Positions 3 to 3,888 of a stretch of DNA of 11,426 bases are shown in pieces. The notes under the pieces were generated by a model. It saw nothing but the letters and a program-made list of their open reading frames with translations, made no database searches and was not told where the DNA came from. The stretch spans positions 1 through 11,426 of the forward strand of contig JBMYPC010000099.1 in the NCBI GenBank assembly GCA_049599895.1, given 5' to 3'. Within the stretch, counting starts at the first letter, position 1. Each line of letters starts with the position of its first letter. The DNA comes from Bacteriovoracaceae bacterium (GTDB lineage: Bacteria > Bdellovibrionota > Bacteriovoracia > Bacteriovoracales > Bacteriovoracaceae). A program made the translations under genes and the position numbers.

Positions 3-1781
3 CAAGATCCTAGTGTTATTTATCATGAACTTGGTCACTCACTTGTGAACCTTATGATGAACATTAGATCAAACACTTCAAACTCAATTGTTCAATCACA
101 GCTTAGCCACCTCTTTTATGATGAGGCCAATGCCATTAACGAAGGGATTGCCGATTGGATGAGTTATTTTATGACCAACCGAACTCGTATTGGAGAATGG
201 GCCCTCGGAAGATTTCTTGATGCTTCAAGACCTCTTACTGAAAGTGACCCACTTCATGTGGCAACAGTGGGAGACTTTGATGGTGGATCACTCTCCTATC
301 CTACTTATCTTAACTATGATGTTCGTTCGGCGTCAGTGCCTGTTGAAGATGTTCACTACGCTGGACAAATTATGACCCATTACCTTGTGGCCCTGACAAA
401 AAACATTGATAATAAATGTGGATTTAATGACATTGATAAATCCCAGGCCCAAGTCTTTAGAATTCTCATTGAGACTCTCTCTGAACTCGGTGACATGAGT
501 GCTAGAGGAAGTGACTCAGCTCAAAACTATTTTGGAACTTCTGAGTATGAGTACAAAGTCAATTTAAGCCCTACTCATGCCTATGAATGGAACCGTATTA
601 ACAATCCCATAAACTACAGAAAGTTCTCTCAAACTCTGGCAAAATACCAAAAAGAGCTTTTAGTGGATTCAGCAAGTGATAGCTCGGTTTGTCCTGGAAC
701 TTATTGTCCTTGTCCTAATCGAGTTTATACAACAGACGACATTGAAAGCTTACTTGATAAGTATGGCCTTCTTCTTTTTGAAACTTATAACGAAAATGGA
801 AACAGTGCTCTTCGCTCTATTTCAAGCGTCCCTGGTTCAAGCCCCTTAGGTCACTCAGGAACGAATAAGCTCGTTTCTCCAGCAAACAGAGTTCAATCAC
901 AACTCATCAACAAGGAACATATTAAGATCGATGATCGCGCAGGACAAAGTACAGCTTATGTCTTTGACGATCGAAGCGATATGCTAAGTGTCCTTGACGG
1001 AGCAGGACTTGGCGCCTTCCTCTCGGATCAGATTGATAGCCAACTCATTCACAATAACGGCAACGGAAAAATAAGCCCTGGTGAATTCCTCGGAGTTCTT
1101 CCTAATCTTTATAATGACTCCACATCAACTATGGCCGGAGTCCAACTTCTGGCCAATGACTGGGATCATTTTAAGGATGATAAACCTTGTAATAATCTAG
1201 GTGATAACTTTCCTTTTTCATCTGAAGGAGCTGCTGATATCTCCACAAATGAAGGAACTCCAGGAGCTTGTGATTACACAACTCGAGAAAATGGCGATGA
1301 AACCGAAGAAGACCTTGCTCCAGTTTGTTTTGTGCAAACAGAAGAGTCTGGAAGCCTTGTTTGGGTTTCACAAGAAAAATTCAGAGACAAAATGAATCTT
1401 GATAAATCAAAATGTCTGAGCCCATCAACCACGAATAGCTCTAATCAAACAGTCTATAATACGAGCAATTGCTTTATCAGGGCCTTTAAAGACCGTGATC
1501 ACGCTTATTATTCAAAAATCAATCCTAAATCAAACTGGGTCGACACTTTAAAAGATGACACTGGTACTCCGCAATTTAGTGTCTCAAATCTTATTTTCTT
1601 TGAAGTTTCCCCTTGGATTCCACCGGGTACTCAATTTAATTGTCGTTTCCGTGCAAGGTTCACAAACTGTAAGGACTGCTTTCACGATAGTTTAAATTCA
1701 AACGATGATTACCTTGATTATGAATATTCTGGAGCTCGTCCGTTTAAGATTATCAACTTTCAATTTAGGGTTATCGATTAA
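3..1781 (+). CDS. Zinc metallopeptidase, thermolysin/fungalysin-like (M4/M36, gluzincin); 5'-partial, with a long Cys-rich C-terminal extension
   Basis: The frame is open from the window edge. 3..47 reads QDPSVIYHELGHSLV, with HExxH at 24-38 upstream of the ORF-track GTG at 45. The third-ligand motif AINEGIADW has NEGIAD at 138-155. EDVHYAGQI (His codon 354-356) resembles the thermolysin GGVHxNSGI active-site His. 12 Cys in the visible part suggest an exported protein. Stop TAA at 1779-1781. Confidence 0.8.
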   Translation, partial: QDPSVIYHELGHSLVNLMMNIRSNTSNSIVQSQLSHLFYDEANAINEGIADWMSYFMTNRTRIGEWALGRFLDASRPLTESDPLHVATVGDFDGGSLSYPTYLNYDVRSASVPVEDVHYAGQIMTHYLVALTKNIDNKCGFNDIDKSQAQVFRILIETLSELGDMSARGSDSAQNYFGTSEYEYKVNLSPTHAYEWNRINNPINYRKFSQTLAKYQKELLVDSASDSSVCPGTYCPCPNRVYTTDDIESLLDKYGLLLFETYNENGNSALRSISSVPGSSPLGHSGTNKLVSPANRVQSQLINKEHIKIDDRAGQSTAYVFDDRSDMLSVLDGAGLGAFLSDQIDSQLIHNNGNGKISPGEFLGVLPNLYNDSTSTMAGVQLLANDWDHFKDDKPCNNLGDNFPFSSEGAADISTNEGTPGACDYTTRENGDETEEDLAPVCFVQTEESGSLVWVSQEKFRDKMNLDKSKCLSPSTTNSSNQTVYNTSNCFIRAFKDRDHAYYSKINPKSNWVDTLKDDTGTPQFSVSNLIFFEVSPWIPPGTQFNCRFRARFTNCKDCFHDSLNSNDDYLDYEYSGARPFKIINFQFRVID

Positions 1782-2377
1782 TGCTAAAAAAAATTGGATT
1801 TTTGACATTCATGGTTTTCCTCGGGTTTTCTCTGACATTTCTCGTACAAGAGAATGATCAGACGAACAATCAAGTTGTGACAAACGTTGAGGATGAAGTA
1901 GATACTCAACCCACTTCGAATAAAAACGTACTGGTGAAAAAGAACAAGCAAACAAAAACAATTACAAAAAGAGAACCTGCTGCAAAAAAGCCGACTCAAA
2001 AAAGTAAAATCAAAGTTCAAAGAATTGCCGGAAGAAGACTTCTTTTACCAATTAAAGATCTCAAAAATATCTCCTACCTCAATACTCCGAACAAAGACTG
2101 GGATAAAAAGCTTCTTAAAAGACTTGGCCGATTCGGCAATGAAGATAAAGAGTTTAAGATTGAACATCTTGATTCTGTTATTCATCCTCAAGGTCAAAGT
2201 AAAGCCGTATTTTATGAGTGGGTCAGAGTCAGATACACAGACGGAAATATCCCAAAGTCTTATGAGGCTTTAGTGAATTCTGAGTCAGGGACAGTCTTTA
2301 AGGTCTGGAATACCACTCAGATTTCAAATCAAAAGCCGATGAAGCTTTCGCCTTCTGGGAGTTATCAAAATATTTAA
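1781..2377 (+). CDS. Membrane-anchored or secreted protein with a Lys-rich linker and a PepSY-like C-terminal region
   Basis: 198-aa ORF. The N-terminus is basic then hydrophobic (MLKKIGFLTFMVFLGFSLTFLV). The C-terminal YEALVNSESGTVFKVWN resembles the PepSY 'vDA.tG.il' strand-turn. The start overlaps the protease stop (TAATG, 1779-1783). Confidence 0.7.
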   Translation: MLKKIGFLTFMVFLGFSLTFLVQENDQTNNQVVTNVEDEVDTQPTSNKNVLVKKNKQTKTITKREPAAKKPTQKSKIKVQRIAGRRLLLPIKDLKNISYLNTPNKDWDKKLLKRLGRFGNEDKEFKIEHLDSVIHPQGQSKAVFYEWVRVRYTDGNIPKSYEALVNSESGTVFKVWNTTQISNQKPMKLSPSGSYQNI

Positions 2378-2386
2378 TATACGGTC

Positions 2387-2481
2387 TGCAGTTACTGTCC
2401 GGGCGGTCCGAGCAGTGAGACTGACTGACAGTTTCAGACAAGCGGAGATACAGTGCGGACGGTCCCGACTGTAACAGCATC
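2387..2481. repeat. Palindromic extragenic repeat, copy 1 (direct repeat of 3158..3261)
   Basis: About 57% GC (54/95 by hand count) in an AT-rich background. Terminal inverted arms gttactgtccgggcggtccg (2391-2410) and cggacggtcccgactgtaac (2456-2475). The 27-nt core 2427-2453 is identical to 3197-3223. Confidence 0.92.
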
Positions 2482-2497
2482 TAAAGATAAATTATTC

Positions 2498-2809
2498 CTA
2501 AGCAACTTCATCAGAGTTAACTCTTTTTCTATCAAAATCTGTTGTTCTTAATTGAACATAAACCACATAAAGATTTTTATCCTTCGGGTTTTCACAATAA
2601 TAAATAGAATTGCCTTTATAGATGAGCTTAGAAAAAAGAGGGTTAGACTCTAAGATTGAACCAGCCAAGGGGTTTGAGCTAAGTAAGTTTTCAGTGTAAT
2701 CAATTAGGTCATTAACGGTGTCAATTGCGAGATTGATATTAAAATTTTCAGCAATATATTCCATCATTTTCTCAAGATCATCCTGAGATTTGGGAGTCCA
2801 TTTAAGCAT
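2498..2809 (-). CDS. Type II toxin, RelE/ParE superfamily (ParE-like)
   Basis: 103 aa. The N-terminal WTPKSQDDLEKMMEYIA and the NPLAG motif are typical of ParE/RelE-fold toxins. It lies directly downstream of a Phd/YefM antitoxin gene and overlaps it by 8 nt. Confidence 0.85.
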   Translation of the reverse strand: MLKWTPKSQDDLEKMMEYIAENFNINLAIDTVNDLIDYTENLLSSNPLAGSILESNPLFSKLIYKGNSIYYCENPKDKNLYVVYVQLRTTDFDRKRVNSDEVA

Positions 2810-3077
2810 ATTTTTTACGGAGTTCTTTTTCTTTCTTTTTTAGTTTGGCCTTAAGTTCACCTGAATCAACGCCTTCACCTCTTAAAGCCTGAGCGTAACC
2901 AATTGCAAGGTTTTTATGAAGTTCCACTTCTTGTTCAAGTTTTTCTATATGATCAACAGATACCATAGCTATTTCTGAGCCATTCTTGTGGGAAATGAGC
3001 TGAACCTCTCCCTCCACAACTTCTTCAAAAGTTTCAAAAAGGGTGGTTCGGAGTTCTGTGATTGTTTTCTTTTTCAT
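2802..3077 (-). CDS. Type II antitoxin, Phd/YefM family
   Basis: 91 aa. MKKKTITELRTTLFETFEEVVEGEVQLISHKNGSEIAMVSVD matches the Phd/YefM N-terminal DNA-binding pattern. First gene of a bicistron with a YefM-type operator upstream. Confidence 0.88.
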   Translation of the reverse strand: MKKKTITELRTTLFETFEEVVEGEVQLISHKNGSEIAMVSVDHIEKLEQEVELHKNLAIGYAQALRGEGVDSGELKAKLKKKEKELRKKYA

Positions 3078-3102
3078 GTGTACATCTTAATGTACACATG
3101 AA
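3073..3102. promoter_or_regulatory. Antitoxin operator: perfect 13-bp inverted repeat containing two TGTACA cores
   Basis: ttcatgtgtacat-ctta-atgtacacatgaa. TGTACA at 3079-3084 and 3091-3096, 12 bp centre to centre, the core and spacing known for YefM-YoeB operators. It overlaps the -10 box and the start codon. Confidence 0.85.
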
Positions 3103-3112
3103 TTTTTGTCAA
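3084..3112 (-). promoter_or_regulatory. Sigma70-type promoter of the TA operon
   Basis: Minus strand: TTGACA (3112-3107), 17-nt spacer, TAAGAT (3089-3084), 6 nt, then ATG (3077). Confidence 0.82.
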
Positions 3113-3157
3113 TTAAGACTGTTAAACCATCAAAATTACTGGAATTAATAAACAGCT

Positions 3158-3261
3158 TGCCGTTACTGTCGGGACGGTCCGAGCAGTGACCTGAGCGACA
3201 GTTTCAGACAAGCGGAGATACAGCGCGGACGGTACGGACAGTCCCGACTGTAACAGTCATC
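3158..3261. repeat. Palindromic extragenic repeat, copy 2 (direct repeat of 2387..2481, with one extra 9-nt unit)
   Basis: Arms gttactgtcgggacggtccg (3162-3181) and cggacagtcccgactgtaac (3235-3254) pair at 18/20 positions. It differs from copy 1 by 7 substitutions, two 1-nt indels and one 9-nt indel (hand alignment). It lies 3 nt past the stop of the minus-strand OMP gene. Confidence 0.92.
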
Positions 3262-3264
3262 GGA

Positions 3265-3888
3265 TTATAAGAAATCAAACGGCGCACTAATCGAAAACAA
3301 AATCTGAGTCAAATCAACTTCACTCTGCCCATCAACAGGAAGATCAGATGAACCTGAGTTATCCTTGAGCTCATCATAAGTAAAAGTTCTGTATTCAAGG
3401 TTTAATGAAATAAAAGGAATTCCGGTGTAACCAGCACCGATCATCATCCCGGTTCCAGAAAGTTCAGAACCTGATTGAAACTGACCTTTAGAGTCATTTC
3501 CATCAGTAAGCTTTGCACTTGGGAAAAAGGCACCATAGGCCCTAAAAAGAATAGGAAGATCAAAGTTTACAAAGACACCAATATTTTGAGCGTCCATCTC
3601 ATCACAATTATCTGAACATTCTCCACCATTAGTAAGATCGGTCCATTTATAATCCCCCATTCCCATATCAACCTGAACACCAGCGGCCACAGGACTTGAG
3701 GAAACACCAACACGGAGTCCGTAATTAATAGAGTTATAATCAGCTTCAGCGTTCATAAGACTGTTTTGAAACTTAGAAGTTCCCTGAACCGCATAACCAA
3801 CATAAGGATCAATATAAAGAAGTCCGTGAGCACTAAAGCTCGTCATTAAAAATAAAAGAACAAGATATTTAAATCCATTAGACTTCAT
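3265..3888 (-). CDS. Outer-membrane beta-barrel protein (small, OmpA/OmpW-like size)
   Basis: Signal peptide ending SFSAHG; alternating aromatic/Gly strands (YIDPYVGY, YGLRVGV, GAGYTG, LNLEYRTFTY); C-terminal strand ILFSISAPFDFL; RBS AGGAG at 3898-3894. Confidence 0.8.
   Translation of the reverse strand: MKSNGFKYLVLLFLMTSFSAHGLLYIDPYVGYAVQGTSKFQNSLMNAEADYNSINYGLRVGVSSSPVAAGVQVDMGMGDYKWTDLTNGGECSDNCDEMDAQNIGVFVNFDLPILFRAYGAFFPSAKLTDGNDSKGQFQSGSELSGTGMMIGAGYTGIPFISLNLEYRTFTYDELKDNSGSSDLPVDGQSEVDLTQILFSISAPFDFL

Follow-up and report, generated by a model that had tools for sequence, protein, structure and literature searches.

A lineage-specific, REPIN-like family of palindromes brackets a predicted toxin-antitoxin operon in a Bacteriovoracaceae genome

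Introduction

A site-gene-site layout with promoter-bearing toxin-antitoxin (TA) cargo is known from integron cassettes, which are bounded by attC sites with a core GTTRRRY and an inverse core at their ends, and from pdif modules, in which 28-bp XerC/XerD sites flank the cargo.

Dispersed palindromic repeats offer a second set of comparisons. REPINs, in the portions of PMC3116915 available to us, are composed of two inverted arms and a spacer, occur as singlets and doublets, lie between genes and are lineage-specific, and their tandem clusters are made of flank-REPIN-flank units separated by a non-repeated stretch. The TIR families of TIRYT transposases, as far as the excerpted text of PMC3733652 describes them, are non-GTAG repeats of moderate abundance that bear the motif GGGGWSAS, form dimers and lie close to gene 3' ends, where REPs are placed as well. 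At the E. coli REPtron locus, hicAB is found in place of the REPtron, the BIMEs having been lost together with the transposase gene (PMC3333891, in its accessible part).

The window considered here, which is the whole stretch of 11,426 nucleotides that was analyzed, belongs to a Bacteriovoracaceae assembly of 3.27 Mb in 266 contigs (97% complete, 37.7% GC). Among sequencing runs, a seawater metagenome contains it, and no RNA run is listed as containing it. A first-pass annotation had described in it a TA operon lying alone between two direct copies of an unrecognized palindrome of about 100 bp, which might be the recombination site of an undescribed gene-capture system acting in trans. In this article, the operon, its junction in relatives, the palindrome family and its candidate partner genes are described and compared with the systems above, and the possible origins of the bracketed layout are weighed. 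Contigs of the source assembly are given as C and other genomes of the family as G, each with a number.

The Toxin-Antitoxin Operon and Its Junction

The features of the region are listed in Table 1. Only two open reading frames, both on the minus strand, lie between the element copies; their Pfam matches, one to an antitoxin and one to a toxin, agree with the description of a TA module as the sole cargo. The antitoxin gene stands upstream of the toxin gene and overlaps it, which is the arrangement of type II Phd/YefM and ParE/RelE pairs, and the operon is classed as a predicted type II TA operon of this kind, the function of the toxin being read from its sequence. Orthologues of the toxin in relatives are 47-68% identical to it, and its comparison with solved structures gave no significant match. 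Control sequences were found as the first-pass annotation had proposed: the promoter, sigma-70-like, spans 3112-3084 and is overlapped by an operator palindrome at 3073-3102. The operator palindrome recurs upstream in all nine close orthologues having upstream sequence. Since the antitoxin ATG falls within this palindrome, the transcript is likely leaderless. A start codon inside the operator is seen here and in G101, most orthologues having a leader with a ribosome-binding site.

Table 1. Positions of the genes, repeat arms and control region described in the text.
Feature	Position	Strand	Description
Left host gene	1781..2377	+	198 aa; conserved in the family, without a recognized domain
Copy 1 of duplicated block (element and short flanks)	2374..2481	+	118-column alignment to 3145-3261, 81%
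Element 1 left arm	2391..2419	+	three phased 9-base words; weaker outer C-N-G word from 2382
Element 1 spacer	2420..2446	.	largely common to element 2
Element 1 right arm, inverted	2447..2475	-	three words
ParE/RelE-superfamily toxin gene	2498..2809	-	103 aa; Pfam PF05016 ParE_toxin, E 9.7e-5, 23.3 bits against a cut-off of 23; predicted
Phd/YefM antitoxin gene	2802..3077	-	91 aa; Pfam PF02604 PhdYeFM_antitox, E 4.3e-9
TA promoter and operator	3073..3112	-	sigma-70-like; -35 at 3112-3107, -10 at 3089-3084
Element 2 left arm	3162..3190	+	three words; outer C-N-G word from 3153
Element 2 right arm, inverted	3219..3254	-	four words against three in element 1; outer word to 3263
Right host gene	3265..3888	-	207 aa, outer-membrane beta-barrel-like; Pfam PF13505, E 3e-5, below cut-off

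The antitoxin was matched in 15 of 150 family genomes, and searches of viral contigs and plasmids for the TA pair returned none. Orthologues of the pair occupy 16 loci in other contexts, several of them near contig ends, and none of the 16 has a flanking direct repeat pair or a match to the repeat arm. The source genome has one more Phd-like antitoxin (C75:9775 onward), which is followed by a small open reading frame and lies behind a structured-looking non-coding stretch; no copy of the palindrome is nearby.

The left host gene was matched in 99 of 150 family genomes; it has zero matches in Pfam and in NCBIfam, so the label "PepSY-like" given to it earlier is unsupported. A large open reading frame at window positions 3-1781, which is cut by the contig start, carries an HExxH motif near its first residues and has no Pfam match; among the 29 loci compared in relatives, 28 have it upstream of the left host gene. 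The cluster of the outer-membrane protein on the other side has one additional member, on a 981-bp ENA contig.

For the comparison of the junction, the 29 best loci of the left host gene in relatives were taken with 1.5 kb each. The outer-membrane protein gene is directly convergent with the left host gene in three of them, with a gap of 31-58 nt, and lies one gene away in another; the three direct junctions hold an ordinary terminator-like hairpin, with neither the element nor the TA pair. No TA pair was found within 1.5 kb at any of the 29 loci. The searches turned up no second genome of the genus. Because the compared relatives belong to other genera, they show the state "no element, no TA" and not "one element, no TA". 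The TA operon is thus accessory at this site, as had been supposed, and both it and the elements are additions to a junction that holds an ordinary terminator-like hairpin in relatives. Excision was checked on assembled contigs, where one contig from a possible source sample spans the region without the joint, a result that cannot show excision to be absent.

The Palindrome Family

The two window copies, at 2387-2481 and 3158-3261, have the same orientation, and their alignment over 105 columns reaches 82.9% (E 3e-24), which confirms that two copies of a palindrome of about 100 bp bound the TA operon. If two indels, of 9 nt and 1 nt, are set aside, the copies agree at 78 of 84 positions (93%). 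The distances of 3 nt and 16 nt on the minus strand between the copies and the stop codons of the outer-membrane protein gene and the toxin gene, respectively, were likewise right according to the ORF ends. Each copy is a doublet of two inverted arms of about 29 nt that recur elsewhere in the genome. Folding of the window elements as DNA is modest (z -1.8 to -2.7); as RNA, the three window strands folded gave z values of -2.4, -1.0 and -2.5, and four other doublets gave -2.6 to -6.3.

The arm reads GTTAC-N-GTC, GGGAC-N-GTC, CG-[AT]-[GA]-C-N-GTA, that is, as three phased words of nine bases each. The lag-9 autocorrelation of the arms is 0.54, compared with 0.25 for shuffled arms, and reaches p 0.008 for the consensus alone. 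Arms change by whole words, as element 2 and a copy on contig C26 carry four on one arm. Within the words, the centers of C-N-G are free (four positions at 1.6-2.0 bits of entropy, against 0-0.7 for the flanking C and G). Of the 18 center positions tested, only 4 are alike in the two arms of a doublet, compared with 111 of 132 other positions; a doublet therefore folds into a long stem interrupted at regular intervals by single mismatches. Covariation in the pairing within one arm did not exceed that of shuffles. A free center in a palindromic word would fit recognition by a symmetric protein. The idea of a restriction site was set aside, as genome-wide counts of ACNGT show neither avoidance nor enrichment (ratio 0.98).

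In the source genome, the same 16 arms at 10 loci come out of a motif scan, a profile search and a covariance-model search; they comprise six inverted doublets, two of them in the window, and four single arms. Under a simple ORF model, all 10 loci lie 5-34 nt from a stop codon, a placement near gene 3' ends like that of REPs in the accessible part of PMC3733652. Five of the 10 lie between convergent genes, compared with 162 of 1313 intergenic gaps of 40 nt or more in the genome (p 0.004), and none between divergent genes. Among 11 open reading frames that neighbor copies are lgt, signal peptidase I, AIM24, lysylphosphatidylglycerol synthase, one TPR protein, one weak HTH match and five without a match. 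At the other eight loci no second copy encloses a gene, which leaves a single enclosing pair among the 10 loci; the chance of two of the 10 lying as close together as the window pair is p 0.02-0.07.

Beyond the source genome, the family was not recovered. Searches with blastn in 40 relatives and with a pattern allowing 2 mismatches in 236 other family genomes gave no match; an arm profile gave only three single matches in 149 family genomes (E 0.06-0.25, all within open reading frames) and none in an overlapping class sample of 149. Two patterns found no arm in viral contigs, and blastn against plasmids and phages returned only matches of E 0.3-4. The exact arm pattern matched three times in a genome collection and once in a metagenome collection, each time singly and without a second arm, and these matches were judged to be chance. 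A loose three-word pattern has 14 matches in the source genome against one in the control; its high counts in other genomes, among the matches listed, were single tandem runs or near control level. Rfam gave three weak matches far below gathering scores, which bears out the impression that the element is absent from catalogued families, and literature searches, judged from listings, brought up no description of the family.

Taken together, the family is classed as uncatalogued, lineage-specific and REPIN-like. It shares with REPINs the inverted arms with a spacer, here predicted to form a long hairpin, the occurrence as singlets and doublets, the dispersed intergenic placement near 3' ends with enrichment between convergent genes, and the restriction to one lineage (PMC3116915, as available). 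It differs from them in having phased 9-base words, only 10 loci and no GTAG/GTGG foot, as two of the 16 arms have such a tetramer nearby, in no constant position, and in having no cognate RAYT flanked by its arms. The likeness to TIRYT TIRs (PMC3733652, in part) extends to the moderate abundance, the non-GTAG sequence, the dimers and the position close to gene 3' ends; the likeness to GGGGWSAS is partial, with weak best-of-window matches at six of eight positions in 14 arms and seven in two, and the Y1 gene of this genome is flanked by another repeat. That comparison was made with the motif, and sequences in Figure 9 and the additional files of PMC3733652 and in Table S1 of PMC6006769 could bear on membership. 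What we rate as new is the REPIN-like sequence family, the REPIN-like kind of palindrome being known.

Integron cassettes and pdif modules share the site-gene-site layout. The attC core GTTRRRY occurs in none of the 16 arms, and no integron integrase over the cut-off was found in the genome (TIGR02249, best 37.8 bits against 265). XerD-arm matches in the window number 8 against 7.7 expected by chance, none of them within the elements, and copies of the family are dispersed without cargo. The exclusion of attC, dif and GTAG-type REP signatures in the first-pass annotation is upheld.

Candidate Partner Genes

No partner gene was found beside any copy of the family. The genome has one RAYT-like Y1 gene (C53:3513-4088, 191 aa; PF01797 over cut-off; NF047646 at 63.6 bits, below the cut-off of 80), which sits between 36-nt inverted repeats (C53:3409-4109) distinct from the 9-base-word arm. 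These repeats form a dispersed family of their own at about 12 loci, with gene-less inverted pairs 140-220 bp apart and, at several loci, a tandemly duplicated arm. The assembly, being split into 266 contigs, could lack a second RAYT.

Among other candidates, GxxExxY genes are absent from the source genome, and of 237 family genomes one has a match above the cut-off, where the words differ. G067:C122 carries two GxxExxY genes flanked by direct palindrome copies with words of 9-10 bases of another type. The one GIY-YIG gene of the source genome has no such repeats, and DUF559 gave one marginal match there.

Stand-alone four-helix-bundle proteins (PF05635/TIGR02436) give the closest likeness in design. 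Their genes occur in 45 of 236 family genomes, and none was found in the source assembly; one protein of relatives matches the solved XCC0516 structure (E 7e-5). Six or more C-N-G per 50 nt were counted at 38 of 85 ends of such genes and at 8 of 208 control ORF ends, a contrast that is overstated because the relatives are kin; the sample consisted of 23 of 30 returned loci (the short clade and two others, with 7 long-clade loci left out) and 40 further stretches. The ten 9-base-word loci score 7-12 on the same scale. Gene-less palindromic C-N-G word arrays with free centers are dispersed between genes in G069 and G168, and literature searches, judged from listings without supplements, gave no description of repeat arrays at stand-alone four-helix-bundle genes. 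These arrays and the 9-base-word family have in common short palindromic C-N-G words with a free center, a position at gene 3' ends and gene-less copies; the arrays differ in their period (6-7 against 9) and words, and the arm profile has zero matches at the four-helix-bundle loci of relatives. The likeness is treated as "works like" and not as membership. A short clade of these proteins (about 100 aa) is found in relatives such as G022, G046, G066, G082, G108 and G165, and one genome has as many as 17 matches. Its genes often stand in divergent pairs, with a hairpin spanning both starts and C-N-G arrays at the outer ends.

As to what the 9-base-word elements are, gene-less arms of the four-helix-bundle word-array type would be the most likely answer, although a tentative one; substrates of the genome's RAYT in trans are less likely.

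Origin of the Bracketed Layout

The preferred reading, to which a probability of roughly 0.55 is given, is that the window elements are sister copies of the REPIN-like family and that the TA operon owes its place between them to a single local duplication, which copied the element together with its short flanks. Within the window pair the likeness is 93%, compared with 70-85% for the other 14 doublet pairs, and the outer 17-nt flanks agree at 12 of 17 positions, the best of 120 arm pairs (mean 5.4). By sequence the copies are therefore each other's closest relatives, flanks included, which argues for a local duplication like that of tandem REPIN clusters, in which copies are likewise duplicated with flanks around a non-repeated stretch (PMC3116915, in the part available); that stretch is here a whole TA operon of 0.66 kb. 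The proposal that the copies are related and not two unrelated insertions is upheld by the same figures. The likeness of the flanks, which are AT-rich and include the stop-codon context, could also reflect target choice. Moreover, the extra word of element 2 is common to the C26 copy and has no counterpart in element 1, so later slippage or conversion must be assumed.

Under the local-duplication reading, the ancestral junction would have held a single element 13 nt and 10 nt from the two stop codons, like four other convergent sites. Repeat-primed recombination, as the TA operon entered or just before, would then have produced the order flank-element-TA-flank-element. The operon could be lost again by RecA-type recombination between the copies, a loss that the toxin would select against. 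A TA pair at the site of a palindromic repeat recalls E. coli hicAB at the REPtron locus (PMC3333891, in its accessible part), except that here two copies remain on either side.

The site-gene-site layout by itself is weak evidence of capture, because direct repeats enclose ordinary genes in the same genome. Seven pairs of direct intergenic repeats enclose genes there; besides the window's pair, three of the seven belong to another repeat family and bracket a ribosomal-protein pair, which we take to be S13 and S11, a pair of genes that presumably encode glycosyltransferase-like proteins, and a four-gene block. Two repeats of this genome were seen in passing. A modular GC-rich hairpin, the fourth repeat family, occurs at about 50 loci (for example, C45:21365-21484, C17:28279 and C26:10209), and has direct copies that bracket ordinary genes on C6, C30 and C100; stretches of its flanking DNA are duplicated locally, a tRNA end on C45 among them. 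A third repeat, probably a collapsed multicopy element, stands at the contig ends of C44, C100 (both), C174, C196 and C236 and directly adjoins a 9-base-word arm on C196.

Bracketing of ordinary genes also lends some credit to the possible, if somewhat unlikely, course of events in which the TA operon was already in place, having come by an unrelated route, when one element inserted behind a stop codon; a short hop to the next stop codon would have given the second copy, so that the bracketing is incidental. Each copy follows its own stop codon, like every member of the family, and the TA orthologues occupy other sites without repeats. The closeness of the pair (p 0.02-0.07) and its rank as the most alike of 15 pairs count against chance but would both be explained by a local hop, whereas the flanks, the most alike of 120 pairs, are not clearly explained in this way.

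An unlikely course, too, is that the genome's RAYT-like Y1 transposase spread the elements as a TIR/REP family and that the duplication is a product of RAYT strand transfer. The presence of one such gene, the REPIN-like doublet architecture, the partial match of the arm core to the TIRYT motif (PMC3733652, as excerpted) and the rolling-type amplification model given for BIMEs in the accessible part of PMC3333891 speak for it. Against it, the gene is flanked by its own 36-nt repeat family, the arm is present at none of 29 RAYT loci of relatives, the motif match is weak, and each tnpA-REP is reported with its own REP family in the available part of PMC6006769. It is improbable that the element is a gene-less arm pair of an undescribed mobile class of C-N-G word arrays, a class linked in relatives to four-helix-bundle genes, and that its copying can pull an unrelated operon between direct copies, which would be a minimal capture route driven by repeats and independent of an integrase.

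Least probable of all is the dedicated trans-acting capture system of the first-pass annotation, in which a circle of the TA operon and one element joined a resident element: the layout with its self-contained operon, the typical convergent-site element left when the cargo and one copy are removed, and the resemblance of the spaced words with free centers to a protein-binding array would suit it. Against it, there is one case of cargo among 10 loci, the 16 loci of TA orthologues lack the element, the best integron integrase score stays below the cut-off, and searches beside the copies gave no partner gene; nor was the element found by pattern in 236 family genomes or convincingly by profile in 149. 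That idea is left unsupported by a family whose copies follow stop codons at 10 of 10 loci, several beside housekeeping-type genes; it is this recurrence at ten loci, always after a stop codon, that makes local duplication the likelier origin of the layout. The same annotation had named as contrary evidence a family lying after stop codons with no enrichment around accessory genes, the copies being independent insertions; the placement is largely as described there, while the independence is not, as the copies are sisters. Capture of cargo by the 9-base-word family as such is possible but unsupported.

Implications

The result adds to the known repeats a REPIN-like family that is specific to one lineage and has an unusual internal code, made of 9-base words with a free center base. 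In one clear case, a duplicated repeat of this family has a TA operon inside it. The result has value as a control as well, as in repeat-rich genomes site-gene-site layouts also form around ordinary genes. Should repeats of this design truly bring in cargo, accessory genes would have small palindromes as points of entry, and it would become possible to test what the widespread stand-alone four-helix-bundle proteins do.
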